From NCBI RefSeq assembly GCF_032842345.1, contig NZ_WBKO01000002.1, positions 58,208-82,207 on the forward strand: 24,000 nucleotides of DNA, given 5' to 3'. Shown piece by piece: positions 7,375 through 22,550 of this stretch. The DNA comes from Methanoculleus caldifontis. GTDB lineage: Archaea > Halobacteriota > Methanomicrobia > Methanomicrobiales > Methanoculleaceae. The notes under the pieces are model-generated. The model ran no database searches. It saw only the letters and a program-made list of their open reading frames with translations, and had not been told where the DNA came from. The translations under genes and the position numbers were made by a program. Within the stretch, counting starts at the first letter, position 1. Each line of letters begins with the position of its first letter.

Positions 7375-7382
7375 AGACCGGC

Positions 7383-8372: not shown

Positions 8373-8386
8373 TTAACAATTGTTAA
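8373..8386. promoter_or_regulatory. Perfect palindrome TTAACAATTGTTAA, copy 1 (candidate operator / promoter element)
   Basis: Read directly; lies in the nadA / 8430-ORF divergent gap. The centre is 28.5 nt from nadA ATG 8351 and 50.5 nt from ATG 8430. Identical copies at 9825 and 16410. Confidence 0.6.
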
Positions 8387-8429
8387 TACGTGATCCGGCC
8401 CGGGTTGCCGGACTTACAGGGACGATCCC

Positions 8430-8777: not shown

Positions 8778-8786
8778 GCCCCTGCC

Positions 8787-9779: not shown

Positions 9780-9824
9780 GAATTCAGCTCCTCCCTCTCG
9801 TTGTCGTGGCTGCCGGGACGGAAG

Positions 9825-9838
9825 TTAACAATTGTTAA
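9825..9838. promoter_or_regulatory. Perfect palindrome TTAACAATTGTTAA, copy 2
   Basis: Read directly; the centre is 52.5 nt upstream of radical-SAM ATG 9779. In the other direction a TATA-like ATATATTA lies at ~9867-9874, upstream of the thiS-like gene. Confidence 0.6.
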
Positions 9839-9955
9839 TCAGACTTATGGGTATCGCCAGGGATCCATATATTACTTGTCGTTGCGGCCGAATCTGCCGC
9901 ATTCCGGTTCTGCAGGACATTTATGGGGTGGCGGGACCAATGCTCTGGGACAGGT

Positions 9956-10150
9956 ATGCAGATCATCCTCCCGGACAGGAGCGTGCGGACGCTTTCCTGC
10001 GCCTCCGCGCCGATAGAAGAGATCCTCCTTGAGCTCGGCATCAACCCGGCGACCGTGATCGTCGTGAAGAACGGCAGGATCGTCCCCGAGGACGTGACGG
10101 CGGAAGAGGGCGACGAGCTCCGGATCCTCCGGTTCTCGCACGGCGGGTGA
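9956..10150 (+). CDS. ThiS/MoaD-family ubiquitin-like sulfur carrier (64 aa, C-terminal Gly-Gly)
   Basis: MQIILPDRSVRTL...VKNGRIVPEDVTAEEGDELRILRFSHGG-stop: beta-grasp length and pattern with terminal GG. I prefer ATG 9956; the N-terminal 11 aa added by the ORF-track start 9923 look non-native. Confidence 0.7.
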   Translation: MQIILPDRSVRTLSCASAPIEEILLELGINPATVIVVKNGRIVPEDVTAEEGDELRILRFSHGG

Positions 10151-10154
10151 ACCG

Positions 10155-11072
10155 GTGACTTCGGCGGAGAACCGGTGCTCTCTCTGCGGCGAACCCGCGG
10201 TCGTCCGCCTCGCCGAGCCGGAGCGGCGGCTCTGCGCCGCCCACTTCATCGAGGACGCCGGGGCCCGCGTCTTCGCCGCCGTGAAGCACGAATGCATGAT
10301 ATCTTCGGGCGACCGGGTCGCCGTCGGCCTGAGCGGGGGGAAAGACAGCACCGCCCTGCTCCTGCTGCTCCACCCCATCCTCCCCGCACTCGGCGCGAGT
10401 CTCATTGCGGTCACCATCGACGAAGGGATCGCGGGCTACCGGGAGGAGACCCTCAAGGCCGCAGAATCCCTGACAGACGAACTCGGCGTCGAGCATGCGA
10501 TCGTCACGTTTACCGACCTCTTCGGGGACGATCTCGACAGGCTGCTCGTCGGAAGAGAACCGCAGGGCTGCACCGTCTGCGGCGTGCTGCGCAGGCGGGC
10601 GCTCGTCGAGGGGGTAAAGAGGGTCGGCGCGACGAAGCTTGCCACCGGCCATAACCTCGACGACGAGGCGCAGTCGGTCCTGATGAACGTCCTCCGCGGC
10701 GACCTCCCCCGCCTCCTCCAGGACACCTCAGCCGGCTATCCGGGTCACTTCGTCCCGCGGATAAAGCCGCTTGCCGTCCTCTCCGAGAAAGAGATCGTGA
10801 CCTACCTCCTCCTCCGCAGCTATTTCCGTGACCTGCCCGAGTGCCCCTACGCCGGGACCGCGCTCCGGTCGGAGGTGCGATCGATGCTTGCCGGGCTCGA
10901 GCACCGCCACCCGGGGACGATGCTCCGCCTGATGCGGTTCCGCGATGGGGTCAGGCGTTCGGCCTGCCCTGCGGAGCCGGCGAAGGCGCTCTCTACCTGC
11001 CGGATCTGCGGCGAACTTGCGAGCGGCGAGGTTTGCCAGGTCTGCAGGCTGCTCGGGCGGGACGGAAAGTAG
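10155..11072 (+). CDS. TtuA/Ncs6(Ctu1)-type tRNA 2-thiolation PP-loop ATPase
   Basis: N-terminal Zn finger CSLCGEP...LCAAH, PP-loop VGLSGGKDSTALL, cluster ligands GCTVCGVLRR and PECPY, KLATGHNLDDEAQ, C-terminal Zn finger CRICGELASGEVCQVC. GTG start lies 4 nt after the carrier gene. Confidence 0.85.
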   Translation: MTSAENRCSLCGEPAVVRLAEPERRLCAAHFIEDAGARVFAAVKHECMISSGDRVAVGLSGGKDSTALLLLLHPILPALGASLIAVTIDEGIAGYREETLKAAESLTDELGVEHAIVTFTDLFGDDLDRLLVGREPQGCTVCGVLRRRALVEGVKRVGATKLATGHNLDDEAQSVLMNVLRGDLPRLLQDTSAGYPGHFVPRIKPLAVLSEKEIVTYLLLRSYFRDLPECPYAGTALRSEVRSMLAGLEHRHPGTMLRLMRFRDGVRRSACPAEPAKALSTCRICGELASGEVCQVCRLLGRDGK

Positions 11073-11078
11073 CGGGTC

Positions 11079-11390
11079 TCACCGGTCGCCGCCGCAGCAG
11101 GACCCCTCATCTCCCCCGCAGCCGCAGGTGCCGCTGTCCATCTCCTTACCCCGGAGGGCCGCCCCGATCATCGCCCAGGCGCACCCGACCCCGCTCTGGA
11201 CCTCGATGGCCTGCACCGGGCAATTCCTGGCGCACGCCCCGCACTCCATGCACTCCTCCGGCCGGACGACCTCGACCCGCCGGTTCCCCTCTGCAAAGAC
11301 CCCGTGCGGGCAGACCTCGGTGCACCGCAGGCAGCCGAAACACCGCTCCGGGTTGTAGCGGAGGGTGTTCTCGCGGTAGGAGTCAAACAT
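11079..11390 (-). CDS. hgcB: HgcB, 2x[4Fe-4S] ferredoxin of the mercury methylation pair
   Basis: Last 103 codons of listed ORF 11079-12416. CFGCLRCTEVCP and CMECGACARNCP ferredoxin motifs plus the C-terminal Cys-rich tail (GTCGCGGDEGSCCGG). Its ATG shares one base with the hgcA TGA (TGATG). Confidence 0.85.
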   Translation of the reverse strand: MFDSYRENTLRYNPERCFGCLRCTEVCPHGVFAEGNRRVEVVRPEECMECGACARNCPVQAIEVQSGVGCAWAMIGAALRGKEMDSGTCGCGGDEGSCCGGDR

Positions 11391-12436
11391 CAGACCGCCC
11401 CCAGAAGGCGGGCCACCCCGAGGACGGCGGCAAGGACGGCTCCCAGGACCGCCATCCCGGCCATGAACGGCACGTAGCGGAAGATCTCCTTCTTCACGCC
11501 GGTCCGCGACGTGAACGGGGTCGAACCGGTGAAGTTGAGCGCGAGGTACGCGGTCACGGGGGGCATGAGGAGGAGAGGTGCGAGCGCGGCAGGGACGCCT
11601 GCCCACCCGGACGCGGCAGTCTCCATGAAGAAGGTGGCCGAGAAGGGAAGAGCGACGATTCCGCCCAGAATGAGCCCTTTCGTGCTGAAGTCCCGGGTGG
11701 GGATGAACGGCAACAGGGCCGGGAAGAGCACCGTTCCGGCAAGGACCGCGGAGATTGCCCCGAGCGCTGCCGGCAGGCCTGCAAGGAGGTAAAGGACGAT
11801 CGCGCCTGCAGCGGTCGGAAGCGCGGCGTGGACGAGCTCCATCGGCGCGAGCACGAGCCGGTCGACGACCGGGAAGCGGACGCGCCGCATATCGGGCGTC
11901 GCTCGCCCGATGGCGAGATACTCCGGGAGGTCGCTTGCCCGCACGGGCCCGTACTCCACGCTGAATCCCGAACGCCGCAGCACTTCGTGGGCAGAGACGC
12001 CCGGGGCGCCGAGCTGCGGGACGATGAGCGTCCGGTGCCGCACGACGGACGCGAGACCCGTGAGCGCTATCCTCCGGACGATCTCGTCGGTGCCGAAGGT
12101 CCCCTTCCCTGCAGCGCACCAGACGTTGATCCCGTGCGTGTCGAGCACAAGGATGTAGCCGTCGTGGCCGGAGAGGGCGGACCGGAGCGCATCGAAACTC
12201 AAGGTGTAGTTTGAGGAGGCAAAGACCGGCGAGTCGGGCGTGGGGTTCCCGAGCCGGTAGAGCCCGGGCTCCACGCGGTGCCCCATCCGATTTACTCCCC
12301 AGCGCGCGAGGAAGTGATCGAGGTGGTTGGCGGGCGTGATCCTGCTGTCTGTCGTTCGGATCTCCTGCACCGGTTCGGCGGCCGGCTGAACGGTCTCCGG
12401 ACAGGACCGGCAGCACGACTGCGGCGGGGATGCCAT
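11390..12436 (-). CDS. hgcA: HgcA, corrinoid protein of mercury methylation (N-terminal CFeSP-like domain + C-terminal membrane domain)
   Basis: Diagnostic cap-helix motif GINVWCAAGKGTFGT. Upstream VEPGLYRLGNPTPDSPVFASSNYTLSFDALR. C-terminal ~4-5 hydrophobic helices. I prefer ATG 12436 (GGAG upstream); ATG 12454 is an alternative. Confidence 0.9.
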   Translation of the reverse strand: MASPPQSCCRSCPETVQPAAEPVQEIRTTDSRITPANHLDHFLARWGVNRMGHRVEPGLYRLGNPTPDSPVFASSNYTLSFDALRSALSGHDGYILVLDTHGINVWCAAGKGTFGTDEIVRRIALTGLASVVRHRTLIVPQLGAPGVSAHEVLRRSGFSVEYGPVRASDLPEYLAIGRATPDMRRVRFPVVDRLVLAPMELVHAALPTAAGAIVLYLLAGLPAALGAISAVLAGTVLFPALLPFIPTRDFSTKGLILGGIVALPFSATFFMETAASGWAGVPAALAPLLLMPPVTAYLALNFTGSTPFTSRTGVKKEIFRYVPFMAGMAVLGAVLAAVLGVARLLGAV

Positions 12437-12440
12437 GACC

Positions 12441-12743
12441 TCACTCCGCCTCATCGATCAGCGGCCCGAGGACGCTCTTGACCATCCCGCTGAGGCTCCC
12501 GGCCTTCATCAGCGCAAGGCAGCAGACCTCGCCGTCCCGCTCCCAGGTGATCAGCGCCAGCTTGTCGCCCGGTCGGATCCCTGCCTTTTCCCGCACGTCT
12601 TTCGGCAGGACCATCTGCCCGCGTTCGTCCACGCTGAGCACCGCCTCCACGCTGCAGACGGCAACCTGGTTGCACCCGCACGGCGTTCCGCCGGGCGGGC
12701 ACCGTTCCGGATTGGTGTTCTCTTCTGCCATAGTGTTCTTCAT
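12441..12743 (-). CDS. AbrB/SpoVT-type (looped-hinge helix) DNA-binding protein with an N-terminal Cys-rich motif
   Basis: GQMVLPKDVREKAGIRPGDKLAL is a typical SpoVT/AbrB core. N-terminal CPPGGTPCGCNQVAVC and a later CC pair. ATG 12743 lies ~25 nt downstream of a TATA-like CTATAAAT (12771-12764, minus), which implies a leaderless mRNA. The stop lies 4 nt before hgcA ATG 12436. Confidence 0.7.
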   Translation of the reverse strand: MKNTMAEENTNPERCPPGGTPCGCNQVAVCSVEAVLSVDERGQMVLPKDVREKAGIRPGDKLALITWERDGEVCCLALMKAGSLSGMVKSVLGPLIDEAE

Positions 12744-12780
12744 ACTATGGTTGAGAGGGGAGGATTTATAGTTATCCAAA

Positions 12781-12800
12781 TTTTCAGATTAATCTGAAAA
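12781..12800. promoter_or_regulatory. Perfect 20-bp palindrome TTTTCAGATTAATCTGAAAA upstream of the AbrB-like/hgcAB promoter
   Basis: Read directly. It lies ~10 nt upstream of the TATA-like element and ~47 nt upstream of ATG 12743. It could instead (or also) be an AU-rich terminator hairpin for the upstream RNA. Confidence 0.5.
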
Positions 12801-12815
12801 TTCAAAATTTTTGTT

Positions 12816-13265
12816 GTGATCCCCGAAGCCCGGTTCCGGTGGCTGTCGAGAAGGCGGCGCCGCAGCTCCCCGGTAGAGGGCTGCAGAGCAGGTAATTTAG
12901 CCCTGTTGAAATGCTCCAAATAACCTCTGGATAGCATGAGTACCAATAGGGGCTGGCGGTGTGGCCTCGCGCGAAGCGAGTTTGAGCACCGTCAGGTGTG
13001 AGTCGCGAAGTCTGGATGGGTATTGATAGTCTCCTTCGCGTTCGTCGCGGCTTCGCGTGGGGTAGCTGGTGCAGATGGCGATACAGCCTCACGCGAAGAG
13101 CGCGAAGCCGCGAAGTGCGATGGTCCGAAGGGCCGGAGCTCGAGCACCGTTAGGTGCGAAGTGCGAGCGTAAGCGAGCTTGAGAGGCCTCAAGGCTTCGA
13201 AGGGAAGTCAAGCGGTTTGACCTCCAGAGGGGCTTCCTCGGAACTTTAGCGAAGTACCGGGTCAC
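12816..13265 (-). ncRNA. Large structured RNA candidate with RNase P RNA-like architecture (assignment tentative)
   Basis: A ~450-nt stretch with no credible ORF in an otherwise packed region. On the minus strand: terminal helix GUGA-CCC (13265-13259) with GGG-A-UCAC (12824-12816). Hairpin 13258-13240, then GAGGAAGCCCC (13239-13229), whose GAAGCCC pairs with GGGCUUC (12831-12825) inside ACCGGAACCGGGCUUC (compare CR-V ACAGAACCCGGCUUA). CCUCUGG (13230-13224) pairs with CCAGAGG (12930-12924). GGAGCA...AGGGCUAAAU lies at 12917-12891. A 9-bp hairpin at 13225-13203 has a G.U on minus that would be A.C on plus. U-runs follow the 3' end. The canonical GGAAAGUCC with bulged U is not cleanly present. 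Confidence 0.4.
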
Positions 13266-14041
13266 TCGCCGGCGGACGGCGGCGAAGCGCCGCGGACCCG
13301 CCCCCACCCGGTATAGACGTTCATCTTTTTGCTCCGCACGAACCCGATAACGGTGAGCCCGCCTGCCTCCGCGGCCTCGACGGCGGTGGTGGTCGTCGCC
13401 CCCCGCGAGACGATCACCGGGATGTTCGCCACCAGGCACTTCCTGACCATCTCGGAGGATATCCGGCCGGAGCTGACCGCAAACGTCCGTGAAAAGTCGA
13501 TCCCTTCGAGGAGGCCGTGGCCGACGACCCGGTCGAGGGCGTTGTGCCGACCGATATCCTCGGCGATCCGGATTGCCTTCCCTTCTCCCTCGAAGAGCCC
13601 GACGAGGTGGATGCCGCCGGTGATCCGGTGCAGATCCGAGTCGAGCGTCTCTTTCGTCGCCGCCCGGATCGCCTCGGGCGCGAGGACGAGGTCGGACCGG
13701 ATCGCGGGGAGCCGTCCGGTATCAAGGAACGAGGTGCTCCCGCCGCACCCGGAGAGGACGGTCTTGTGCGAGGTCAGGATCGCGAACGGGTTCTTCGTGA
13801 GGACGCTCGCGGTGTTCCCCTCGATGCGGATCGACTCGATCTCGCGGAGTTCCTTGACGATCCGCTCCGTGTAGAGGAACCCCACGACGAACTCCCGGAG
13901 CATCGCCGGGCTCGTCATGGCGGTGAGGGCGTGGCGCCCGTTGACGGTCACGGAGAGGGGCATCTCCTCCACGACAGGGTGGGTTGCGGGAACGAACGTC
14001 TCCCCGTCGCCTTTGACGATCGGCAGTTCCCGGTAGAGCAT
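13262..14041 (-). CDS. fdhD: FdhD-family sulfurtransferase (sulfuration of Mo/W-bisPGD cofactor)
   Basis: Last 259 codons of listed ORF 13262-14617. VLSGCGGS, ITGGIHLVGLF, EDIGRHNALDRVVG (family signature), SGRISSEMVRKC. Its ATG 14041 shares one base with the upstream TGA (TGATG). Confidence 0.85.
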   Translation of the reverse strand: MLYRELPIVKGDGETFVPATHPVVEEMPLSVTVNGRHALTAMTSPAMLREFVVGFLYTERIVKELREIESIRIEGNTASVLTKNPFAILTSHKTVLSGCGGSTSFLDTGRLPAIRSDLVLAPEAIRAATKETLDSDLHRITGGIHLVGLFEGEGKAIRIAEDIGRHNALDRVVGHGLLEGIDFSRTFAVSSGRISSEMVRKCLVANIPVIVSRGATTTTAVEAAEAGGLTVIGFVRSKKMNVYTGWGRVRGASPPSAGE

Positions 14042-15225
14042 CAGGTCGCCCTCCGGGATATCTCTTCGACGGTGGCTATCATTGTGTCGACTTCCTCTGC
14101 TGTGGTATAGATGTAGGTGCTCGCCCGCACCGTTCCGTCCGGGAGGCCGATATGCTCCATGAGCGGCTGGCAGCAGTGGTGTCCCGACCGGACCAGGACG
14201 GCCGCGGCCTCGTCGAGGACCTGCGCCGCCTCGTGCGGGTGCATCCCTTCGACCGTGAACGAGACGACCCCGATCCGTTCGCCGGACGCATCCGGTCCCG
14301 CGACCGTGACGCCGTCGAGCGCGGCAAGCCCGTCGATCAGCCGGGCAGCGAGCCGCTCCTCGTGCCGCCGCACCGTCTCCATCCCGATCTCCCGGAGATA
14401 CGCCGCCGCCCGTGCAAGCCCTATGACGCCGGCGATCGGGGGCGTTCCCGCCTCGTAGCGCTGCTCGCCGGGAGCGAGGATATAGCCTTCGGCCGTCGCG
14501 CTCTCGACCGACCCGCCCCCGACGAAGAGCGGTTCGAGGTCCGGCCGGCGCATCCAGAGCGCGCCCGTCCCGGTCGGGCCGAGCATCTTGTGGCCCGAGA
14601 AGCAGAAATAGTCGCACCCGATGGCGGCGACGTCGACCGGGAGATGCGGAGCCGACTGGGCGCCGTCGACGAGGAGCCGCGCACCCCGGTCGCGGCAGAT
14701 CCCGGCGATCTCGCGGACGGGAAGGACGGTGCCGAGGACGTTTGAAGCGTGGGTGACGGCGACGAGCCGGGTATCGTCGCGGATGGCCGCCTCCAGGTCG
14801 GCGAGGTCGAGGCAGCCCTCAGAGTCCGGCCGGACGATATCCACCGCGACCCCCCGCTCGCGGAGCCGGAGCCAGGGGAGGAGGTTTGAGTGGTGTTCGA
14901 GGAGCGTTGTCACCACCCGGTCGCCCCGCTGCCAGGCGAGACCGGCGGCGACCGCTCCTATCGCCTCGGTGGTGTTCCGGGTGACGGCAAGGGCGCCCCC
15001 GTCCCCGCCGACGAACGACCGGACGGCGTCGCGGGCGTCCCGGTAGCGGTGGGTGGCGACGACGGCGAGCCGGTGCATCCCCCTCCCGACGTTTGCCCGG
15101 TACCGGAGGTCGTACTCGACCATCGCCTGGACCACCGGTTTCGGGGTGAGCGACGTCGCCGCGCTGTCCAGGTAGATGAGGTCCCGGGTGATCGGGAAAT
15201 CCGTCCTGCAGTCCTCGATCTTCAT
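14041..15225 (-). CDS. Cysteine desulfurase, group II (SufS/CsdA-like)
   Basis: IYLDSAATS, PLP-Lys FSGHKMLGPTGTGALWMRR, active-site RSGHHCCQPLM. Its ATG overlaps the larE-like stop (ATGA). Confidence 0.85.
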   Translation of the reverse strand: MKIEDCRTDFPITRDLIYLDSAATSLTPKPVVQAMVEYDLRYRANVGRGMHRLAVVATHRYRDARDAVRSFVGGDGGALAVTRNTTEAIGAVAAGLAWQRGDRVVTTLLEHHSNLLPWLRLRERGVAVDIVRPDSEGCLDLADLEAAIRDDTRLVAVTHASNVLGTVLPVREIAGICRDRGARLLVDGAQSAPHLPVDVAAIGCDYFCFSGHKMLGPTGTGALWMRRPDLEPLFVGGGSVESATAEGYILAPGEQRYEAGTPPIAGVIGLARAAAYLREIGMETVRRHEERLAARLIDGLAALDGVTVAGPDASGERIGVVSFTVEGMHPHEAAQVLDEAAAVLVRSGHHCCQPLMEHIGLPDGTVRASTYIYTTAEEVDTMIATVEEISRRAT

Positions 15226-16028
15226 AATACCTCGTCCATGCTCCCGCTTCGGTATCCGGCGAGGTCCAGGGCGACATAGGCAAAGCCGATCCCCCGGAAC
15301 GCGGCCATGACCTTGTCTCGCACGCTAAAGAGGGATTCCAGTTTGTCGGGAGGCACCTCTATCCGGGCGACATCGCCGTGCACCCGGACCCGCACCTGCA
15401 CCTGAGCGAATCCCAGGCCCTGCAGGGCCTCCTCGGCCGCCTCGATCCGGGCGAGCGCCTCCTCTGTGATCTCGTCCCCGTAGGGGATGCGGGTTGCGAG
15501 GCAGGCTGCCGAAGGCTTGTTCCAGAACGGGAACCCACACTCGCGTGCGATCCTGCGGACGTCGCCCTTCGCCGCACCCGCCTCGACAAGGGGGTGGCAG
15601 ACCCCTTCCTCGTCGCTTGCAGCAAGCCCCGGGCGGTACGTGCCGAGGTCGGAGACGTTCGTTCCGTCTGCAACCGTGTCGATCCCCCCCCGGCGGGCCA
15701 GTTCCTTCAGCAGGAGGGAGGATGCTTTTTTGCAGGCGTAGCACCGGTCGGGCCGGTTCGCCCGGAAGGTCTCGTCCCGGAGGATCGGGAACGCCACGAC
15801 CTCCAGGGGGAGGTCCAGCCGGGTAGCGGTCTCCCGCGCCTCCCGCACCGCCTGCCGGGGCAGGAGCGGCGAGTCCAGGAGGACGCACCGGACCCGCTCC
15901 TTTCCGAGCGCCCGGACGGCCAGGGCGGCGAGGAGCGAGCTGTCGACGCCCCCTGAGTAGGCGACCAGCATGGGCCCTTTCGCCTTGAGGCTCCTGGCGA
16001 TCGCCTCACCGCTGCTCTCTGGTTCCAC
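15222..16028 (-). CDS. LarE-like PP-loop ATP-dependent sulfur transferase (three-Cys type)
   Basis: PP-loop VAYSGGVDSSLLA. YRPGL, WNKPSAACLATRIPYG, VRVRVHGDVARIEV, LDLAGYRSGSMD align by eye along the length of Lactobacillus LarE. CYACKK plus the AACLATR Cys give a possible 3-Cys cluster site. Confidence 0.8.
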   Translation of the reverse strand: MEPESSGEAIARSLKAKGPMLVAYSGGVDSSLLAALAVRALGKERVRCVLLDSPLLPRQAVREARETATRLDLPLEVVAFPILRDETFRANRPDRCYACKKASSLLLKELARRGGIDTVADGTNVSDLGTYRPGLAASDEEGVCHPLVEAGAAKGDVRRIARECGFPFWNKPSAACLATRIPYGDEITEEALARIEAAEEALQGLGFAQVQVRVRVHGDVARIEVPPDKLESLFSVRDKVMAAFRGIGFAYVALDLAGYRSGSMDEVL

Positions 16029-16040: not shown

Positions 16041-16367
16041 TCACGCTTCCGTGTCGCACGACCCGCCGAGCTGGTTCTCTTCGCGGATCTGCGTGCAGAT
16101 CTCACATATCCGGGAGGCGAGGTCGTCTACCCGGCCGGCCTGGAGGTCCTGTGCAAGCCGGCTGAGCGACTCTTTCACCTCGCCCTCAAAGACAATCCGG
16201 TACCCACGTTTCCCGGTGCGGTACTGCGAGATCGCCGACGGCGTCATATCGAGGAGGCGGGCGGCCTCCAGCTGGGAAACGCCCATGGCATTCAGTTCTT
16301 CAGCGATCGCAGCCCGGATCGCGGGCAACACGTTCCATACAATCAACTGGCAGGGGAGTTTCATCAT
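16041..16367 (-). CDS. Small XRE/Cro-type HTH transcription regulator with four Cys (candidate binder of the TTAACAATTGTTAA palindrome)
   Basis: HTH GVSQLEAARLLDMTPSAISQYRTGKRG. Cys at position 6 and in the C-terminal ICEICTQI...GGSCD. First gene of the larE-like/sufS-like/fdhD operon (12-nt gap). Palindrome copy 3 is centred 49.5 nt upstream of its ATG. Confidence 0.75.
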   Translation of the reverse strand: MMKLPCQLIVWNVLPAIRAAIAEELNAMGVSQLEAARLLDMTPSAISQYRTGKRGYRIVFEGEVKESLSRLAQDLQAGRVDDLASRICEICTQIREENQLGGSCDTEA

Positions 16368-16409
16368 ACCACAACTTTTAATGGTTCCGGAGCAGATCTA
16401 ACAGTGATG

Positions 16410-16423
16410 TTAACAATTGTTAA
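16410..16423. promoter_or_regulatory. Perfect palindrome TTAACAATTGTTAA, copy 3
   Basis: Read directly, in the divergent gap between the regulator (ATG 16367) and iscS (ATG 16480). Directly followed by TATA-like TTTTATC (16424-16430) in the iscS direction. Confidence 0.65.
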
Positions 16424-16479
16424 TTTTATCTTCGGAGAACAAATACCTTTGTGCAGAGTAAGAGTGCGGTGTGAACGCC

Positions 16480-17664
16480 ATGGTTGACGGGAGATCGCGG
16501 CCGATCTACATGGACCATGCGGCGACGACGCCGGTACGGCCGGAGGTCGTCGAAGAGATGCTCCCCTGCTTCTTGGAACGGTTCGGTAATCCCTCCTCGA
16601 TCTACGCCCTCGCCCGTGAGGCGCAGGTGACGATGGAGAGGGCCCGGGGACGGGTGGCGGCGGCGATCGGGGCGAGCACGGATGAGATTTTCTTCACCTC
16701 CGGTGGGACCGAGGCCGATAACTGGGCGATCAAAGGGGTGGCGGCGGCGAACCGGAAGAAGGGCGATCATATCGTCACCTCCGCGATCGAGCACCACGCG
16801 GTCCTCCACCCCTGCCAGGCCCTCGAGAAGCAGGGCTACCGGGTCACCTACCTCCCGGTCGACGAGTTCGGCCGGGTGGAGCCGGCATCGGTCGAGGAGG
16901 CGATCACGGAGAAGACCGTCCTCGTCTCGGTGATGGCCGCAAACAACGAGATCGGGACGATCCAGCCGGTCCGCGCGATCGCGGGAGTCACCCACGACCA
17001 TGGCATTCTCTTCCACACCGACGCCGTCCAGGCGATCGGGGCGATACCGATCGACGTGGATGCGCTCGGGATCGACCTCCTCTCGCTCTCGGCCCACAAG
17101 TTCGGCGGGCCGAAGGGGACGGGAGCGCTCTACATCCGGCGGGGGACCCGCGTAAAGCCGCTCATGGATGGCGGGGCGCAGGAGCGGGGCCGCCGGGCCG
17201 GGACCGAGAATGTCCCCGGGATCGTCGGGATGGGGAAGGCGATCGACCTTGCGGTCGCCGAGATGCCGCAGAAGTCCGCCTGGCTCGCCGCGATGCGGGA
17301 CCGGCTGATCCGGGGGATCCTGGATTCTATCCCGGATACCCGTCTGAACGGCCACCCGACCGAGCGGCTCGCAAACAACGTCAATATGGCGTTCCGCTAC
17401 GTCGAGGGGGAGTCGATCCTTCTCTCGCTCGACGCCCTCGGGATCGCGGGCTCGACGGGGAGCGCCTGCACCTCGGCGTCGCTCGAGCCCTCGCATGTCC
17501 TGACCGCCTGTGGCCTCCCACCCGAGCACGCCCACGGCTCGCTCCGCCTCACCCTCGGCTCCCGGAACACCGATGAGGACGTCGATTACGTTCTTTCCGC
17601 CCTCCCCCGGGTGATCGAGCGCCTGCGGGAGATGTCGCCGCTCAGCCCTAACGATAACGCGTGA
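16480..17664 (+). CDS. iscS: Cysteine desulfurase, group I (IscS/NifS)
   Basis: IYMDHAATTP, PLP-Lys LSAHKFGGPKGTGALYIRR, active-site loop STGSACTSASLEPSHVL. ATG 16480; the ORF track starts at GTG 16471. Confidence 0.9.
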   Translation: MVDGRSRPIYMDHAATTPVRPEVVEEMLPCFLERFGNPSSIYALAREAQVTMERARGRVAAAIGASTDEIFFTSGGTEADNWAIKGVAAANRKKGDHIVTSAIEHHAVLHPCQALEKQGYRVTYLPVDEFGRVEPASVEEAITEKTVLVSVMAANNEIGTIQPVRAIAGVTHDHGILFHTDAVQAIGAIPIDVDALGIDLLSLSAHKFGGPKGTGALYIRRGTRVKPLMDGGAQERGRRAGTENVPGIVGMGKAIDLAVAEMPQKSAWLAAMRDRLIRGILDSIPDTRLNGHPTERLANNVNMAFRYVEGESILLSLDALGIAGSTGSACTSASLEPSHVLTACGLPPEHAHGSLRLTLGSRNTDEDVDYVLSALPRVIERLREMSPLSPNDNA

Positions 17665-17669
17665 TCTCT

Positions 17670-18059
17670 ATGTACAGCGAACAAGTTATGGACCATTTCA
17701 TGAACCCCCGGAACATGGGGGAGATCCCGGATGCGGACGGTGTCGGCGAGGTCGGGAACCCGGCCTGCGGCGACATCATGCGGATAACTCTCCGGGTCGA
17801 AGAGGACAGGATTGTGGATGCAAAGTTCAAGACTTTCGGGTGCGCCGCCGCCATCGCGTCGAGCTCGATGGCCACCGAACTCATCAAGGGCAAAACCCTC
17901 GAAGAGGCGTGGGCGGTCACCAACCGGGCGGTTGCCGAGGCGCTGGAGGGGTTGCCTCCCCAGAAACTTCACTGCTCGGTCCTCGCCGAAGAGGGGATCC
18001 ACAAGGCGATCGACGACTACCGGGCGCGGCACGGAACACCGACCGCGAATGGAGGATAA
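17670..18059 (+). CDS. iscU: Fe-S cluster scaffold IscU/NifU-like
   Basis: VMDHFMNPRNMGE, GNPACGDIM, FKTFGCAAAIASSS, KLHCSVLAEE: the three cluster Cys in canonical context. ATG 17670. Confidence 0.9.
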   Translation: MYSEQVMDHFMNPRNMGEIPDADGVGEVGNPACGDIMRITLRVEEDRIVDAKFKTFGCAAAIASSSMATELIKGKTLEEAWAVTNRAVAEALEGLPPQKLHCSVLAEEGIHKAIDDYRARHGTPTANGG

Positions 18060-18063
18060 CGGT

Positions 18064-18798
18064 ATGCTCACCGAGCGGGAACAGGAGCGCTACGCCCGGC
18101 AGATCCTCCTCTTCGGCGAGGCGGGTCAAGAACGGCTGAAGAAGGCGAAGGTCTTCATCGCCGGGGCAGGGGGTCTCGGCTGCCCGATCGCCCTCTACCT
18201 TGCTGTCGCCGGTGTCGGGGAGATCCGCCTTGTGGACCGGGATACAGTGGACCGGACCAACCTGAACCGGCAGGTCCTCCACTGGGAGAGGGATCTCGGT
18301 ACCCCTAAGGCCGAATCGGCAGAGGCGAAACTCCGGGAGGCAAACCCGGATGTCCACATAGAGGCTCTGGAGGAGACCATCGACGAGGCGAACGTCCGGG
18401 ACCTGGTGGGTGATGCCGATCTGATCGTGGATGCGATGGACAACTTCCCGACCCGCTACCTCCTGAACCGGGAGGCGCTCCGGTCCGGCGTGCCGCTCAT
18501 CCACGGTGCAATCAGGGGATTCGACGGCCAGGCAACGACCCTCGTCCCCGGCCGGACTGCCTGCCTCGAGTGCCTCTTCCCGGAGGCCCCGCCCGGCGAG
18601 GTCTTCCCGGTCGTCGGAACTACACCGGGGATCATCGGCCTCATTCAGGCGAACGAGGCGATCAAGTATATCACCGGTGCCGGCGACCTTCTGCTGGACC
18701 GGCTCCTCATCTGGGACGGCCTTTCGACGACGCTTGAGACGTACGCCGTGGAGCGGCGGCCGGACTGCCCTGCCTGCGGTGAAGGGATGAGACCATGA
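18064..18798 (+). CDS. moeB: E1-like adenylyltransferase of the MoeB/ThiF/UbaA family
   Basis: RYARQILLFGEAGQERL, Rossmann FIAGAGGLGCP, DRDTVDRTNLNRQ, Zn motifs CLECLF and CPACG. Real gene is the 3' part of listed ORF 17812-18798. Confidence 0.85.
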   Translation: MLTEREQERYARQILLFGEAGQERLKKAKVFIAGAGGLGCPIALYLAVAGVGEIRLVDRDTVDRTNLNRQVLHWERDLGTPKAESAEAKLREANPDVHIEALEETIDEANVRDLVGDADLIVDAMDNFPTRYLLNREALRSGVPLIHGAIRGFDGQATTLVPGRTACLECLFPEAPPGEVFPVVGTTPGIIGLIQANEAIKYITGAGDLLLDRLLIWDGLSTTLETYAVERRPDCPACGEGMRP

Positions 18799-19073
18799 AG
18801 GTCCGGGTGAAGACGTTCGCCCGGTTCCGGGAGATCCTCGGCGGGGAGTCGACGCTTGATCTCCCCGATGGGGCAACGATGGCAGCGGTTCTCGCCGCGC
18901 TCCGTGGCCGTGCCGGGGACGAGAGCGATGCAATCTTCGATGAGACCGGGGCGCTCCGGGCGCATGTCATCCTGATGCGAAACGGGAAGCGGATCGGCAA
19001 AGCCGACCGCAATGCTCTCGTTCTTGCGGAGGGGGACGAGATCGCCCTCTTCCCGCCGGTCGCGGGCGGATGA
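18795..19073 (+). CDS. moaD: MoaD/ThiS-family sulfur carrier (92 aa, C-terminal Gly-Gly)
   Basis: MKVRVKTFARFREILG...EGDEIALFPPVAGG-stop. Its ATG overlaps the moeB TGA (ATGA), and its TGA overlaps the moaE ATG (ATGA). Confidence 0.75.
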   Translation: MKVRVKTFARFREILGGESTLDLPDGATMAAVLAALRGRAGDESDAIFDETGALRAHVILMRNGKRIGKADRNALVLAEGDEIALFPPVAGG

Positions 19074-19504
19074 GGGGGTATGAGGTTATGATCGGTATTA
19101 CCAGGGATGTCATCGACGCAGGCGCGATGATCGAGGCGGCGAAGAGACCGGGCATGGGAGCCCTGGTCACCTTCTGTGGTGTCGTCAGGGACGACGGCGG
19201 TATCGAGCGGATGGAACTGGAGGTCTACGAAGAGGTTGCGGTCCGCGAACTGGAACTGATCCGCGACGAGACAATGCGGGAATACCCGATCGAGTCGGTG
19301 GATATCGTCCACCGTGTCGGGTCTCTCCAGCTCGGCGAGACCATACTCCTCATCGTCGTCGGTGCCGGGCACCGGAAAGAGGCGTTTGAGGCCTGCGAGT
19401 ACATCCTCGAGCGAATCAAGGAGAGCGTGCCGATCTGGAAGAAGGAGATCGGGGAGGGCGGCGAGCGCTGGGTGCCGGGCGAGTCGTCCGGGGGCGACGC
19501 ATGA
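19070..19504 (+). CDS. moaE: Molybdopterin synthase catalytic subunit MoaE
   Basis: GALVTFCGVVRD, IVHRVGSLQLGETILLIVVGAGHRKEAFEACEYILERIKESVPIWKKE: the MoaE signature. ATG 19088 is a possible alternative start. Confidence 0.85.
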   Translation: MRGYEVMIGITRDVIDAGAMIEAAKRPGMGALVTFCGVVRDDGGIERMELEVYEEVAVRELELIRDETMREYPIESVDIVHRVGSLQLGETILLIVVGAGHRKEAFEACEYILERIKESVPIWKKEIGEGGERWVPGESSGGDA

Positions 19505-20715
19505 TCCGGCTGCAGTCCTGCCGCAAAGCCTACGCGAAGGAGACCCAGCGCACAGTCGCCCCGGAAGAGACACTGGAGCGGGCACGGGCAAAGCTCCCGG
19601 CCGCCGGGATCACCCGGATCGCCGATATCACGAATCTCGACCGGATCGGGATCCCAGTCTTCTCGAGCATCCGCCCGACCGCTGAGGCGGGGGCGATCTC
19701 GGTCTACAACGGCAAGGGCGCCACCCCGATCGAGGCGGAAGTCTCGGCGATGATGGAGGGGATCGAGCGCTACTCGGGCGAGATGGCCGACCGGGAGATC
19801 GTCACCGGGAGGTACAGCGAGGTCTCGGCCGAAAGAACCGCTCTCGACCCGGCGGACCTGATCCTCCCCGAGAGGGTCCCGGCCGATATGGTGGTCCCGT
19901 GGGTGGAGGGATATGATATCGTGCAGGGCGAGGAGGTGCTCGTCCCCGCCCACGCGGTCTTCCACCCCCTCCCGGTGACCTGCGGCCGCCTTTTCAGGAC
20001 CAACACCAACGGGCTCGCCTCCGGGAACACACTTGAGGAGGCGACGTTCCACGCCCTGATGGAGGTGGTCGAACGCGACGCCTGGTCGCTCGTCGAGGTG
20101 ACCAAAAAGACCGGGCCGCGGATCGAAGGGGTCACTGACGGGCTTGCGGCCGACCTGCTCGCGAAGTTCGCGGCCGCCGGGGTCGAGGTCACGCTCAGGG
20201 ATATCACGAGCGACACCGGGATCCCGACGGTGGCCGCGGTCGCCGACGACGTGGTGCTCAAAGACCCGACGCTCCTGACGATCGGGATGGGATCCCACAC
20301 GAGCGCCGGGATCGCCGTTCTCCGGGCACTCACGGAGGTCGCCCAGAGCCGGCTGACCCAGATCCACGGCGCCCGGGAGGACACCGATACGGCGGACGTC
20401 AGGAAGCGGATCGGTTACGAGCGGACGAAGCGGCTGAACCGGCACTGGTTCGCGGAGAACGGTTCGGTCGAGTTTGCGGCCATGCCGTCGTTTGACAGCG
20501 ATGATTTCCTCACCGACATCGATCGGGTCACCGGCCGGCTCGCAACATCCGGGCTCTCGCGGGCGATCGTGGTCGACCTGACCCGGCCGGAGATCGGCAT
20601 CCCGGTCGTCCGGGTGATCGTGCCGGGGTTGGAAGTCTACGCAATGGACCAGGACCGGATCGGGGGGAGGTGCCGTGACGCCCGGAATCGTCGTCTTCCT
20701 CGGTCCCAGCTGTGA
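19501..20715 (+). CDS. ycaO: YcaO-domain ATP-dependent amide-activating enzyme (methanogen McrA thioglycine type)
   Basis: ITNLDRIGIPVF, GKGATPIEAEVSAMMEGIERYS, TNGLASGNTLEEATFHALMEVVERDAW. Its ATG overlaps the moaE TGA (ATGA). Confidence 0.9.
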   Translation: MIRLQSCRKAYAKETQRTVAPEETLERARAKLPAAGITRIADITNLDRIGIPVFSSIRPTAEAGAISVYNGKGATPIEAEVSAMMEGIERYSGEMADREIVTGRYSEVSAERTALDPADLILPERVPADMVVPWVEGYDIVQGEEVLVPAHAVFHPLPVTCGRLFRTNTNGLASGNTLEEATFHALMEVVERDAWSLVEVTKKTGPRIEGVTDGLAADLLAKFAAAGVEVTLRDITSDTGIPTVAAVADDVVLKDPTLLTIGMGSHTSAGIAVLRALTEVAQSRLTQIHGAREDTDTADVRKRIGYERTKRLNRHWFAENGSVEFAAMPSFDSDDFLTDIDRVTGRLATSGLSRAIVVDLTRPEIGIPVVRVIVPGLEVYAMDQDRIGGRCRDARNRRLPRSQL

Positions 20716-21331
20716 CCTTGCCTCCGCCCGGGCGATCCTCGACGCCGAGTACCGTCCTCCGGCGAAGCGGGGAGATATAGCGGAGGCCGCAAGGGCCGGA
20801 GCCCGGATCGTCGGGCTCATCGACGGCGTCTTCTTCCAGGACTGCGCCGTCGCCCACCGGGAGGTCCTCGCCGCGCTCCGGGCCGGGGTGCGGGTCGTCG
20901 GCGCCTCCAGCATGGGAGCCCTCCGGGCCGCGGAGCTCGACAGCCTCGGGATGGAGGGCGTCGGCGAGATCTACCGGGCCTACCGGGAGGGGAGGCTCGT
21001 CGCCGACGACGAAGTGGCGCTCGTCTTCGACCCCGAGACCTTCGTCCCGCTCTCCGAGCCGCTCGTGAACATCCGGGCGACCCTGCAGGAGGCGCTCGCG
21101 CGGGGCGCGATCGGGGCCGGTGCGGCACGAGAACTTCTCAGTGCCGCACAGAGGCTCTACTTCCCCGAGAGGACCTACGATGCGATCGTCGAGGCCGCGG
21201 AGGGGACGGTGGACCCGGAGGACCTTGCCCGCTTCCTTGCGTTTGCCGGTGAGCATGCCGTCGACCGGAAGCGTGAGGACGCGCTGTCGGCGCTCAGGTA
21301 CATTCGCGAGCTTGCCGACAGCCTGCCGTGA
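20675..21331 (+). CDS. tfuA: TfuA-domain protein (YcaO partner for thioamidation)
   Basis: VVFLGPS...EYRPPAKRGDI, GLIDGVFFQDCAVAHREVL, VVGASSMGALRAAEL, EVALVF. GTG 20675 is preceded by GGAGGT and overlaps the ycaO 3' end by 41 nt. Confidence 0.85.
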   Translation: MTPGIVVFLGPSCDLASARAILDAEYRPPAKRGDIAEAARAGARIVGLIDGVFFQDCAVAHREVLAALRAGVRVVGASSMGALRAAELDSLGMEGVGEIYRAYREGRLVADDEVALVFDPETFVPLSEPLVNIRATLQEALARGAIGAGAARELLSAAQRLYFPERTYDAIVEAAEGTVDPEDLARFLAFAGEHAVDRKREDALSALRYIRELADSLP

Positions 21332-21334
21332 GCG

Positions 21335-21352
21335 TTGAACCGGCGGGTTCAA
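21335..21352 (+). terminator. Hairpin TTGAACC-GGCG-GGTTCAA just after the tfuA stop (possible operon end)
   Basis: Perfect 7-bp inverted repeat read directly, 4 nt after TGA 21329-21331. No following T-run, so terminator function is uncertain. Confidence 0.3.
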
Positions 21353-21750
21353 TGGTTCCACTGCAACCATCGTAGCAATACATCTCCGGCCGGACCGAGT
21401 TCTGTGTAGCGGTGCGGATTCATTCCCACCGCAGGGGGCAGCGCAATAACCGGAGCCGAAGCGGCTCTCCCTGCCCGCCGCACTTCCGGCACCTGCGGCG
21501 GACCCCGGGGAGCGCCCTCCGGCCGGAACCACACAGGCATGTACTCAGGCAGCTGCCCCGGATATCTGGTCCGGACAACATCAGAACGGCAGTGCCCGGT
21601 CAGCGGGTACCGCAGTCAACGGCCGGATCCGCCCCTGGGACGGGTCCGGCGGGGAGAAGATCGAGTGGCTCTCCTACAACCCACCTATCCTGACCCACCG
21701 CAATGATCTCCTCCGGGGCGGCACACACTCCGGGGGTTTCTCCCCGACTG

Positions 21751-22218: not shown

Positions 22219-22504
22219 GCTCGAAACACCTGCGGCCGTAAGCACACCCACGCGACAAGAAGGTTATGGTCCCGCCGCGGGTCGGGAGTCATGCCGTAGC
22301 GACCTGTGTTCGGCCGACCGGCGGAAAACCCGTCCTGAAAGATACCGGAGAGTCCGGTGCGTCGTAATGCAGGGGCCGGCGGCAGATGCAAAAAAAGTCT
22401 GTATAGAGGACGTGCAGTAGCGCACTGGAAGGGTATGGCGGACGCGGCGCAGGCAGGGTTCCATCGCGCACGACGCCTGGCCACGTACTAGTAAGAATCC
22501 CGCA

Positions 22505-22550
22505 GATAAAAATGTTTACCATTTATAATAAAAAATATTTTTAGTAGCAA
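22505..22550 (-). promoter_or_regulatory. AT-rich island: oligo-U terminator region for the hydrolase gene plus a TATA-like element for a downstream minus-strand transcript
   Basis: The only strongly AT-rich block in the 3' third of the window. The minus strand reads ...CTAAAAATATTTTTTATTATAAATGGTAAACATTTTTATC..., with a T6 and a T5 run after stop 22568 and TTATAAAT as TATA candidate. Contains the 12-bp palindrome AAAAATATTTTT (22531-22542). Confidence 0.4.

Follow-up and report, generated by a model that had tools for sequence, protein, structure and literature searches.

The window analyzed here, a 24,000-nt stretch of the genome of Methanoculleus caldifontis, places genes for the activation and use of a sulfur carrier directly in front of ycaO and tfuA, which raises the question of whether a MoaD-type carrier system is tied to the thioamidation of the McrA glycine and whether one carrier serves both this modification and molybdopterin synthesis. 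Reading of the sequence revealed a single co-directional, gap-free string (16471–21331) of genes encoding NifS, NifU, an E1-like adenylyltransferase, a MoaD/SAMP1-type carrier, MoaE, YcaO, and TfuA (Table 1), and Pfam and NCBIfam profile matches confirmed the identities given to these genes in the initial annotation. The linkage of carrier genes to ycaO-tfuA is real, widespread, and already published: Nayak et al. (2017) reported thiF, sufS, moaD, moaE, and moeB beside ycaO-tfuA in several methanogens, and ycaO-tfuA is needed for thioglycine in Methanosarcina acetivorans (PMC5589413). What is new here is the paralogy of two modules and the joining of nifSU to ycaO-tfuA through a chimeric moaE.

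Table 1. Features of the window, with profile scores or genomic context.
Feature	Position	Strand	Evidence or context
SAMP2/ThiS-like ubiquitin-like carrier, GG end	9956..10150	+	Weak, sub-cut-off: SAMP2 27 bits, thiS 24.5 bits
NcsA/TtuA-type tRNA thiolation enzyme	10155..11072	+	NcsA 193 bits, below cut-off
FdhD	13262..14041	-	PF02634 in orthologous genes of L081, L082
SufS-type cysteine desulfurase	14041..15225	-	SufS subfamily 400 bits, under the 475 cut-off; Aminotran_5 401 bits
LarE-like PP-loop sulfur transferase	15222..16028	-	TIGR00268 298 bits (cut-off 150)
HTH protein, 108 aa, C-terminal Cys pairs	16041..16367	-	Pfam HTH_3; divergent from nifS
Perfect 14-bp palindrome TTAACAATTGTTAA, candidate operator	16410..16423		AT-rich divergent promoter region, HTH gene/nifS
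nifS-type cysteine desulfurase, first gene of the string	16471..17664	+	TIGR03402 595.7 bits (cut-off 530.75)
nifU/iscU-type Fe-S scaffold	17661..18059	+	TIGR03419 216.5 bits (cut-off 187.9)
E1-like adenylyltransferase, ThiF/MoeB/UbaA superfamily, group g1	18064..18798	+	Pfam ThiF 254 bits, full length
92-aa beta-grasp sulfur carrier, MoaD/SAMP1 type, group g1, C-terminal Gly-Gly	18795..19073	+	SAMP1 NF041918 68.1 bits (cut-off 60); moaD_arch 59.6 bits (cut-off 49.5)
moaE, molybdopterin synthase catalytic subunit, chimeric	19088..19504	+	Pfam MoaE 115 bits
ycaO, McrA-glycine thioamidation type (methanogenesis marker 1)	19501..20715	+	TIGR03266 510.4 bits (cut-off 365)
tfuA, GTG start	20675..21331	+	NF033432 285.4 bits (cut-off 235.2)

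The nifU gene starts either at GTG 17661, overlapping the nifS stop, or at ATG 17670, and its orthologues are called at 129 aa. The E1 lacks a rhodanese domain and matched no NCBIfam equivalog model above its cut-off; aligned to E. coli ThiF (PDB 1zfn), it shows both CxxC pairs, a loop shorter by four residues, and no crossover-loop cysteine. Its identity is 81–92% to the E1s linked to nifSU (group g1) compared with 66–70% to those linked to ycaO (group g2), and a neighbor-joining tree was also built. The carrier ends in PPVAGG, with PDB entries 2m19, 1vjk (MoaD), and 3po0 (SAMP1) as its best matches, while MoaE retains the HRKEAF and VPIWKKE motifs of solved MoaE structures. YcaO matched PDB 6pe3 (MJ1094; 2e-83) and is 94% identical to its orthologue in locus L001, and TfuA, whose start lies 4 nt behind the Shine–Dalgarno sequence GGAGGTG, matched PDB 6xp8 (1.5e-51) with the GASSMGALRA block conserved.

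The initial annotation had chained the genes by three ATGA overlaps, two of which are genuine, namely those joining the E1 to the carrier gene (18795–18798) and moaE to ycaO (19501–19504). The ATGA at 19070–19073 is probably just the Gly-Gly-TGA end of the carrier gene, and the in-frame ATG 19070 is probably unused as a moaE start, given that orthologous genes start at the ATG equivalent to 19088. These MoaEs all begin with MI[GS][IV]TRD and are preceded by a spacer of 9–19 nt and variable frame that contains a GGAGG-like motif. In the closest relative that is arranged alike, the carrier gene stops with TAA, so that an ATG equivalent to 19070 is lacking. The overlap of 41 nt between ycaO and tfuA is genuine and recurs in orthologous loci, and the E1 gene does lie directly downstream of nifS-nifU (the iscS-iscU of the initial annotation), 4 nt behind the end of nifU. 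A single 4-base start/stop overlap is unremarkable because such overlaps are frequent in prokaryotic operons; the weight rests on the conserved packing. The moaE/ycaO overlap, as ATGA or GTGA, is kept in 26 of 26 Methanoculleus-type loci, and the window shares its E1/carrier ATGA with L081 and L082, two paralogous loci linked to nifSU. Scanning showed a single AT-rich promoter region, which precedes nifS, and neither an oligo-T run nor a large AT island inside the string; on the plus strand, no T5 run was found between 15726 and 22538. The seven genes thus packed most likely form one transcription unit within a sulfur-trafficking island of Methanoculleus.

The E1-carrier-MoaE-YcaO-TfuA order is not unique to this genome, being found in about 20 Methanoculleus/Methanomicrobiaceae loci. 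Across lineages, at least five arrangements link these families to ycaO-tfuA: for instance, the order is YcaO-TfuA-E1-carrier-MoaE in L028 and L029, divergent in L056, YcaO-TfuA-carrierA-E1-x-x-carrierB-MoaE in L060 and L074, where both carrier kinds coexist, and YcaO-TfuA-carrier in Methanothrix, where the carrier gene overlaps tfuA. This diversity makes the proposed tie of an E1/MoaD-type carrier system to YcaO-TfuA plausible, although the carrier of the window belongs to a MoaE-linked clade (C-terminus FPPVAGG) and not to the one directly behind tfuA in Methanothrix. Many Methanoregulaceae carry ycaO-tfuA with no carrier or E1 gene nearby, and the linkage is therefore not required.

The E1-carrier-MoaE module normally exists in Methanoculleus as two paralogues, of which one lies behind nifSU (g1) and the other before ycaO-tfuA (g2), and these occupy separate loci in M. 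thermophilus and HGW-2-type contigs, as they do in most Methanoculleus. In the window, as in M. chikugoensis AP019781, the nifSU module is joined to ycaO-tfuA via a moaE that is of g1 type up to about 19365 and of the ycaO-linked g2 type from about 19366, with the crossover within 19366–19482. This chimera was recognized by sliding identity against g1 (L082, L086) and g2 (L001, L004, L005, L008, L010) sequences and by a census of N- and C-terminal types among 120 MoaE homologues. Homologous recombination inside moaE would have swapped the modules, so that the nifSU-linked one now stands before ycaO-tfuA and the other carrier and MoaE stay elsewhere on the same contig. Two further proteins appear to be encoded on the window's own contig, as both of their records give its length of 582,681 bp: P0244, a second MoaD/SAMP1-type carrier that is 55% identical to that of the window, and P0189, a second MoaE whose final 47 aligned residues are identical to those of the first. 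P0244 is the g2 carrier, intact and 87% identical to the carrier of L001.

Because the contig apparently encodes another MoaD-type carrier and another MoaE besides those of the string, the initial proposal that a single MoaD/ThiS-like protein serves both pathways is not implied for this genome. In its strict version, with the 92-aa carrier as the sole carrier for MoaE and TfuA and IscS/NifS as the sulfur source, we consider it highly improbable. No other MoaD-type carrier lies inside the operon, NifS and NifU are encoded directly upstream, and a multi-role carrier has a precedent in Haloferax SAMP1 (PMC4443979); against this count not only P0244 and P0189 but also the SAMP2/ThiS-like carrier of the window and the linkage of nifSU elsewhere to the g1 module instead of ycaO-tfuA. 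With nifSU and ycaO-tfuA at separate loci in most Methanoculleus, the idea of IscS as the ultimate donor stays conjectural.

A different possibility is a division of labour, in which P0244 would be dedicated to TfuA, the g1 carrier of the window would serve molybdopterin synthase only, and the juxtaposition of this g1 carrier with ycaO-tfuA would be a neutral by-product of recombination between the moaE paralogues, silent on sulfur flow. The g2 module is indeed the one fused to ycaO-tfuA in most Methanoculleus, the g2 carrier is intact in the window's genome, and the carriers of L060 and L074, one behind tfuA and another before moaE, argue for such a division there. We nevertheless hold it to be rather unlikely for the window, since the g2 carrier is missing from the ycaO-linked module of L023 and L024 through loss, with E1-MoaE-YcaO-TfuA still in place, the swap persists in M. 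chikugoensis and others, at least four sequences in all, AP019781 yielded no second MoaE or E1 cluster among the best 120 matches, and the g1 and g2 carriers both belong to the same MoaE-linked clade. The ycaO-linked module has also lost its E1 in L001, L002, L004, L009, and L014 and suffered an internal E1 deletion in L006; together, these lineage-specific losses suggest that carriers and E1s may be interchangeable, while MoaE, YcaO, and TfuA remain under equal purifying selection (dN/dS 0.17–0.26).

The window as a whole is a sulfur-metabolism island. The genes for FdhD, the SufS-type desulfurase, and the LarE-like protein share one operon with the HTH gene, whose orthologues (46–97% identity) are neighbors of these same sets of genes in L027, L036, L045, L058, L065, L067, L071, L076, L081, L082, L085, and L086, making its product a candidate regulator of the island. 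The palindrome, located in an AT island (16359–16450), has three perfect copies in the window compared with 0 expected and stands before three divergent promoter pairs; one copy, at 9825, lies upstream of the SAMP2/ThiS-like carrier gene, which together with its neighbor has L081 orthologues matching PF21965 SAMP2 (weakly) and ATP_bind_3. The same palindrome also separates the HTH gene from nifS in L081, L082, L085, and L086 and from ycaO in L076. These features could be read as co-regulation only, that is, a sulfur- or cysteine-responsive regulon in which YcaO-TfuA would use free sulfide or another donor and not a MoaD-type carrier. Such a reading agrees with the character of the island, the shared candidate operator, the solitary ycaO-tfuA of Methanoregulaceae, and the occurrence of thioglycine in some methanogens without TfuA (PMC5589413). 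It is decidedly unlikely in our judgment, given that the activity reported for TfuA is hydrolysis of a carrier thiocarboxylate, ThiS-COSH (a finding that PMC13185837 and PMC13063428 ascribe to Liu et al. 2021), that the Methanothrix carrier gene overlaps the tfuA stop, and that E1, carrier, and MoaE genes are linked to ycaO-tfuA repeatedly and independently, in orders that differ.

The explanation we favor, to which we assign about an even chance, combines a sulfur-island operon with shared, interchangeable carriers and recombined modules. The E1 would adenylate the C-terminal glycine of MoaD/SAMP1-type carriers, and the adenylate would be converted to a thiocarboxylate with sulfur from the persulfide of NifS or the neighboring SufS, or from free sulfide. 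The thiocarboxylate could then be used by MoaE for molybdopterin or hydrolyzed by TfuA, which would hand the sulfide to YcaO for the ATP-dependent conversion of the McrA glycine to thioglycine. Together with the one E1 that is left, the carriers would constitute a small interchangeable pool with no one dedicated protein. The sequences establish what the genes are, how tightly they are packed and conserved, the paralogy, and the chimeric moaE; co-transcription, the biochemical steps, and interchangeability are inferences. Against such a pool speak the carrier coexistence in L060 and L074, the clade of the window carrier, and the Methanoregulaceae loci, together with the sulfide-rich habitats of methanogens. 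Some thioamide-forming YcaO enzymes come from organisms of high-sulfide environments, while those from other settings tend toward a thiocarboxylated carrier and TfuA (PMC13063428).

When compared to known systems, the window shares with M. acetivorans the same YcaO and TfuA families, above curated cut-offs, and the ycaO/tfuA overlap, and with several other methanogens the presence of thiF/moeB, moaD, moaE, and sufS genes near ycaO-tfuA (PMC5589413); here, however, the carrier genes lie within the same gap-free string, with moaE overlapping the ycaO start. In contrast to the TfuA/ThiS-COSH mechanism, the carrier is of MoaD/SAMP1 type and not annotated as ThiS. Likewise, E. coli MoeB-MoaD-MoaE (PDB 1jw9, 1fm0) has a ThiF-fold E1 with two CxxC pairs, a Gly-Gly carrier, and the HRxEAF and PIWKKE motifs in MoaE, whereas the window carrier is a 92-aa protein of SAMP1/moaD_arch type, no MoeB equivalog model reaches its cut-off with the E1, and each genome has two such paralogous modules, one translationally fused to ycaO. 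In Haloferax volcanii, one E1 (UbaA) acts with several ubiquitin-like carriers (SAMP1/2/3), and SAMP1 doubles as MoaD; similarly, one E1 probably acts on more than one beta-grasp carrier here, with the two MoaD/SAMP1-type carriers and the SAMP2-like one beside the NcsA/TtuA homologue as candidates, and the window carrier scores above the SAMP1 model cut-off. Unlike UbaA, the E1 lacks the crossover-loop cysteine in the ThiF alignment and reached 248 bits against the 450-bit cut-off of the UbaA model, so protein conjugation is not indicated, and no JAMM protease is encoded in the window. Methanothrix-type loci (L036, L042–L046, L058, L060, L061, L065, L067, L068, L074, L076) also place a SAMP1/MoaD-family carrier in the ycaO-tfuA operon, but after tfuA, often overlapping its stop, in a separate clade ending in FPAAIGG and usually without MoaE, while the window carrier precedes moaE. 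Finally, the YcaO-TfuA pairs from actinobacterial RiPP clusters of the thioamitide/thioviridamide kind have the same two-protein thioamidation chemistry and modify a small precursor peptide within a biosynthetic gene cluster, whereas in the window McrA is presumed to be modified and the neighbors belong to primary sulfur trafficking.

Seven co-directional genes, nifS, nifU, E1 (an adenylyltransferase of the ThiF/MoeB/UbaA superfamily), carrier (a 92-aa MoaD/SAMP1-type protein), moaE, ycaO, and tfuA, followed one another with no real gap between positions 16471 and 21331 of the window, which has a G+C content of 66%. Every gene identity assigned to this string in the initial annotation was backed by Pfam and NCBIfam, and comparison with solved structures agreed with the family assignments of MoaE, the carrier, TfuA, YcaO, and E1. 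NifS (595.7 bits; TIGR03402 cut-off 530.75) and NifU (216.5 bits; TIGR03419 cut-off 187.9) scored above the respective thresholds. YcaO reached 510.4 bits with TIGR03266, "YcaO-related McrA-glycine thioamidation protein" (cut-off 365), its residues 15-391 spanning the whole model, and matched M. jannaschii MJ1094 (PDB 6pe3) at 2e-83, and TfuA, encoded immediately 3' of ycaO, obtained 285.4 bits with NF033432 (cut-off 235.2) and matched PDB 6xp8 at 1.5e-51. As products of adjacent genes that both score above the model cut-offs, YcaO and TfuA are a McrA-glycine thioamidation pair by sequence; no mcr genes were found in the window. The carrier, which ends in PPVAGG, matched Pfam ThiS, passed the cut-offs of moaD_arch (59.6 vs 49.5 bits) and SAMP1 NF041918 (68.1 vs 60 bits), and aligned with MoaD and SAMP1 structures. 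MoaE gave a full-length Pfam MoaE match (115.5 bits), did not reach the NCBIfam MoaE equivalogs (84 vs 175 bits), and carried HRKEAF and VPIWKKE blocks that align with the solved MoaEs 2omd and 2qie. By these sequence criteria, the carrier and MoaE correspond to the small and large subunits of molybdopterin synthase.

In E1 (18064-18798), Pfam ThiF covered positions 1-238 of 238, and the alignment to 1zfn revealed a GAGGLG nucleotide-binding glycine motif and two CxxC pairs (CLEC and CPAC). The protein matched E. coli ThiF and MoeB structures and stayed below every specific equivalog (MoeB NF006444, 282 vs 449 bits; UbaA NF047750, 248 vs 450 bits; ThiF TIGR02356, 209 vs 275 bits), and it is assignable to the superfamily only. 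The crossover-loop cysteine, which is used for an acyl-disulfide or thioester in ThiF and conjugating E1s, was absent from residues ~170-185 of E1, where the loop has four residues fewer than that of E. coli ThiF, and no rhodanese domain was present in the protein. E1 looks like a pure adenylyltransferase that would need an external sulfur donor, and the missing loop cysteine argues, if weakly, against SAMP1-type conjugation to target proteins.

Three ATGA overlaps had been proposed within the string, two of which were real, namely E1/carrier (18795-18798) and moaE/ycaO (19501-19504). The 41-nt ycaO/tfuA overlap, with a GTG at 20675 behind GGAGGTG, was also genuine and is kept in orthologous loci. 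The remaining ATGA, at 19070-19073, exists in the sequence and is probably only the GGA-TGA of the carrier. It was rejected as the moaE start since the orthologues, 18 loci in all, use the ATG equivalent to 19088 (MI[GS][IV]TRD...), located behind a GGAGG-like motif (spacer 9-19 nt, frame variable); in M. chikugoensis, where the arrangement is the same as in the window, the carrier stop is TAA, so there is no ATG at that stop. The moaE/ycaO overlap, as ATGA or GTGA with a G-rich Shine-Dalgarno motif inside moaE, was kept in 26 of 26 Methanoculleus-type loci.

A TfuA scan with one genome per species yielded 80 loci; because it used exact peptide patterns and missed several named Methanoculleus species, the locus counts are lower bounds. 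The closest loci were from Methanoculleus MAGs (identity of 94% for YcaO and 92% for TfuA). The tblastn survey recovered the order E1-carrier-MoaE-YcaO-TfuA in at least about 20 Methanoculleus/Methanomicrobiaceae loci, YcaO-TfuA-E1-carrier-MoaE in L028 and L029, a divergent (<>) MoaE-carrier <> E1-YcaO-TfuA in L056, YcaO-TfuA-carrier without MoaE and with the carrier overlapping the tfuA stop in many Methanothrix loci, and YcaO-TfuA by itself in most Methanoregulaceae. Two further layouts were YcaO-TfuA-carrier-E1-(two small ORFs)-carrier-MoaE (L060 and L074) and, in the more distant Methanomicrobiaceae loci L027 and L035, NifU-E1-carrier-MoaE-YcaO-TfuA, from which it appears that the long string may also resemble an ancestral layout. 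The survey across methanogens that the initial annotation had called for thus found several orders, and a gene order unique to this genome was rejected, the same order occurring in other Methanoculleus/Methanomicrobiaceae loci and in M. chikugoensis. That the linkage of the E1/carrier/MoaE set with ycaO-tfuA either evolved or was retained in several layouts provides good evidence, at the level of gene neighbourhood, for a functional tie between them. The two small conserved ORFs between E1 and the MoaE-linked carrier (7850-8460 in L060, 11772-12553 in L074) encode about 120-160 aa and about 90-100 aa, the shorter one starting with MGCIE..., and an NCBIfam profile search gave no match for either.

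A protein search with E1 separated the Methanoculleus homologues into two groups: g1, linked to nifSU and 81-92% identical to the window, and g2, usually found in front of ycaO-tfuA and 66-70% identical. The g1 E1s include those of M. chikugoensis, M. thermophilus, M. horonobensis, and HGW-Methanomicrobiales-2, and the g2 E1s, the type of the ycaO clusters, those of M. bourgensis MS2, M. sediminis, and M. horonobensis; in the neighbour-joining (NJ) tree of E1s, g1 was sister to g2, with L026, L028, L029, and L035 outside. On M. thermophilus and HGW-2-type contigs, the g1 context was FdhD-SufS-LarE-HTH <> NifS-NifU-E1-carrier-MoaE-ferredoxin-like gene, without ycaO-tfuA, so two loci are the usual state. 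The complete M. chikugoensis genome (AP019781) has the arrangement of the window.

DNA identity between the window and its closest relatives was 60-74% from the carrier to about 19390 and at least 90% beyond, a step not present among the closest relatives themselves. Sliding identity against the g1 and g2 loci indicated that the window is g1-like to about 19365 and g2-like from about 19366, and all similarity of the g1 loci to the window was gone past the end of moaE. The left flank of the window moaE is the context of the first locus and the right flank that of the second, syntenic with L001, L004, and L008 as far as the end of the window. Only 4 of 120 MoaE homologues joined a g1 N-terminus to the ycaO-overlapping "GGDA" C-terminus: that of the window, that of M. 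chikugoensis, and two from metagenomic contigs. The identity switch near 19366 and the mixed N- and C-terminal type show the window moaE to be a recombinant of the g1 and g2 paralogues. A MoaE on a 733-bp metagenomic contig (P0209) represents the reciprocal kind of chimera, with a g2-type N-terminus and a g1-type C-terminus; it may reflect a further natural recombination event or an assembly error.

The layout had been read as one MoaD/ThiS-like carrier serving both molybdopterin synthase and thioamidation. This does not follow, and a single carrier was rejected for this genome, as two more candidates are present. The first is P0244, which the database labels "MoaD/ThiS family protein" [Methanoculleus sp. 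Wushi-C6]. It shares 87% identity with the L001 g2 carrier and 55% with the carrier of the window, and scores 65.6 bits with SAMP1 NF041918 (cut-off 60). The second is a SAMP2/ThiS-like Gly-Gly protein within the window itself, a third ubiquitin-like carrier, which E1 might serve as well. A second MoaE, P0189, is of the g2 type at its N-terminus, agrees with the window MoaE in every one of its last 47 aligned residues, and has the tail GDSGK in place of the ycaO-overlapping one. With these proteins, the genome holds at least three ubiquitin-like carriers and two MoaEs. P0244 and P0189 are recorded on a 582,681-bp contig, as are the window's own proteins (P0001, P0121), and we infer that this is the same contig. 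A reciprocal exchange with a conversion tract would account for the 3' segment being identical in both moaE paralogues and for their complementary flanks, and an inversion between inverted moaE copies would be the simplest reading because both products survive on one contig.

The 46 Gly-Gly carriers from the compared loci formed two clades in the NJ tree, one encoded directly behind tfuA with the C-terminus FPAAIGG and one in front of moaE with the C-terminus FPPVAGG. Both clades passed the SAMP1 and moaD_arch cut-offs. The carrier of the window, located 5' of moaE, grouped with the FPPVAGG clade and, by position and tree, is no member of the Methanothrix-type TfuA-adjacent clade. L060 and L074 bear one carrier of each clade, with a single E1 between the two.

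Within the ycaO-linked module, MoaE, YcaO, and TfuA were never lost. L001, L002, L004, L009, and L014 have no E1 and carry unrelated genes upstream instead, among them one for a PAS histidine kinase, and the E1 of L006 had an internal deletion. The carrier was missing in L023 and L024 with MoaE-YcaO-TfuA intact, and a search for carrier-gene remnants in these two loci returned nothing significant, indicating true absence from both. Purifying selection was similar in all five genes (median dN/dS 0.17-0.26). Such lineage-specific losses imply that another locus, presumably the nifSU-linked module, can provide E1 and the carrier in trans. Among the best 120 matches, there was no second MoaE or E1 cluster of M. 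chikugoensis AP019781, a hint that this genome may have a single module.

As the host is an archaeon, transcription signals were surveyed as AT islands and T-runs instead of with a bacterial sigma-70 promoter/terminator scan. Near the string, a single large AT-rich island (16359-16450) was found, between nifS and a divergent gene for a 108-aa helix-turn-helix (HTH) protein; no comparable island was found inside the string, and no T5 run occurred on the + strand between 15726 and 22538, a pattern consistent with a single transcript from nifS through tfuA. Right after the tfuA stop (21334-21353), there is a 7-bp stem (TTGAACC/GGTTCAA) with a 4-nt loop and no T-run behind it, and the first T5 run 3' of tfuA is at 22538, inside an AT-rich region (22489-22547). 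The perfect 14-bp palindrome TTAACAATTGTTAA was present in three copies in the window, with none expected, all flanked by sulfur-related genes. The HTH <> nifS region of L081, L082, L085, and L086 contains it too, as does the HTH <> ycaO region of L076; L056 and L078 have variants, and it was missing from the usual g2 ycaO clusters of Methanoculleus. We consider it a candidate operator of the neighbouring HTH protein; given its absence from those g2 clusters, the module swap may have placed ycaO-tfuA under this candidate operator. An HTH-LarE-SufS-FdhD operon accompanies ycaO-tfuA far beyond Methanoculleus, directly divergent from ycaO in Methanosphaerula (L071) and L076 and a few kb downstream in several Methanothrix loci (HTH-carrying loci: L036, L045, L058, L065, L067, L071, and L076), and SufS, not NifS, is the more widely conserved desulfurase neighbour of ycaO-tfuA. 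Judging from its predicted genes, the whole window is a sulfur-metabolism island.

Sulfur-related genes outside the string and copies of the palindrome in the window
Feature	Position	Remark
SepCysS/SepSecS-like fragment	94-804	
O-acetylhomoserine sulfhydrylase-type PLP enzyme	807-2102	
Alpha/beta hydrolase with CBS domains	2095-3573	
ThiI	4315-5451	
PALP cysteine-synthase-like enzyme	5448-6404	
Hexapeptide transferase fused to FeS_assembly_P domain	6394-7374	
NadA, radical SAM protein, CdhD-like protein	within 1-13000	
SAMP2/ThiS-like Gly-Gly protein directly 5' of NcsA/TtuA-type tRNA thiolation enzyme	9956-11072	family scores below curated cut-offs
HTH protein gene	16041-16367 (-)	divergent from nifS
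TTAACAATTGTTAA copy	8373-8386	NadA <> 115-aa ORF divergent promoter region
TTAACAATTGTTAA copy	9825-9838	radical-SAM <> SAMP2-NcsA divergent promoter region
TTAACAATTGTTAA copy	16410-16423	HTH <> nifS divergent promoter region

To our knowledge, all methyl-coenzyme M reductases studied to date contain thioglycine, and the way sulfur gets to YcaO in the cell has been approached only in vitro, with a ThiS-type carrier. One tentative proposal, which we regard as rather unlikely in this full form, is that the physiological sulfur donor for McrA thioglycine in Methanomicrobiaceae is the carrier system of molybdopterin synthase, with MoaD/SAMP1-type carriers charged by one shared E1, perhaps with a role for the ycaO-fused MoaE. 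If it were true, the MoaE paralogue invariably joined to the start of ycaO might, for instance, bind the thiocarboxylated carrier or offer it to TfuA, beyond being part of a second molybdopterin synthase, and the module swap and lineage-specific losses of E1 or carrier would be natural experiments showing interchangeable carriers. The two modules, the moaE/ycaO overlap, the Methanothrix carrier clade, the swap, and the losses offer natural experiments for picking the carrier, E1, and MoaE, and make it possible to ask in concrete terms which carrier supplies TfuA in vivo. They also caution against taking operon adjacency in one genome as a sign that two pathways share a carrier.

Much of the framework is already published. 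In M. acetivorans, ycaO and tfuA are required for McrA thioglycine, and the same study described the ycaO/tfuA start/stop overlap, reported thiF, sufS, moaD, moaE, and moeB near ycaO/tfuA in several methanogens, and suggested TfuA as a possible deliverer of sulfide equivalents (Nayak et al. 2017, PMC5589413); among the open-access literature searched, it was the only source mentioning tfuA and moaE together. PMC13185837 credits Liu et al. 2021 with the finding that a Ser-Lys pair of TfuA hydrolyses ThiS-COSH to provide sulfide to YcaO, and PMC13063428 gives a thiocarboxylated ThiS homologue plus TfuA as the usual route outside high-sulfide settings. Given this neighbourhood and mechanism, the interpretation in the initial annotation essentially restates published ideas, and its one specific twist, the shared carrier, is not supported for this genome. 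The string is real, conserved, and biologically sensible, a further case of an already described neighbourhood, and the gain is incremental because the basic association and mechanism are in the literature; what is new relative to these known systems is the two-module picture, the chimeric moaE, the two carrier clades, and the candidate operator.
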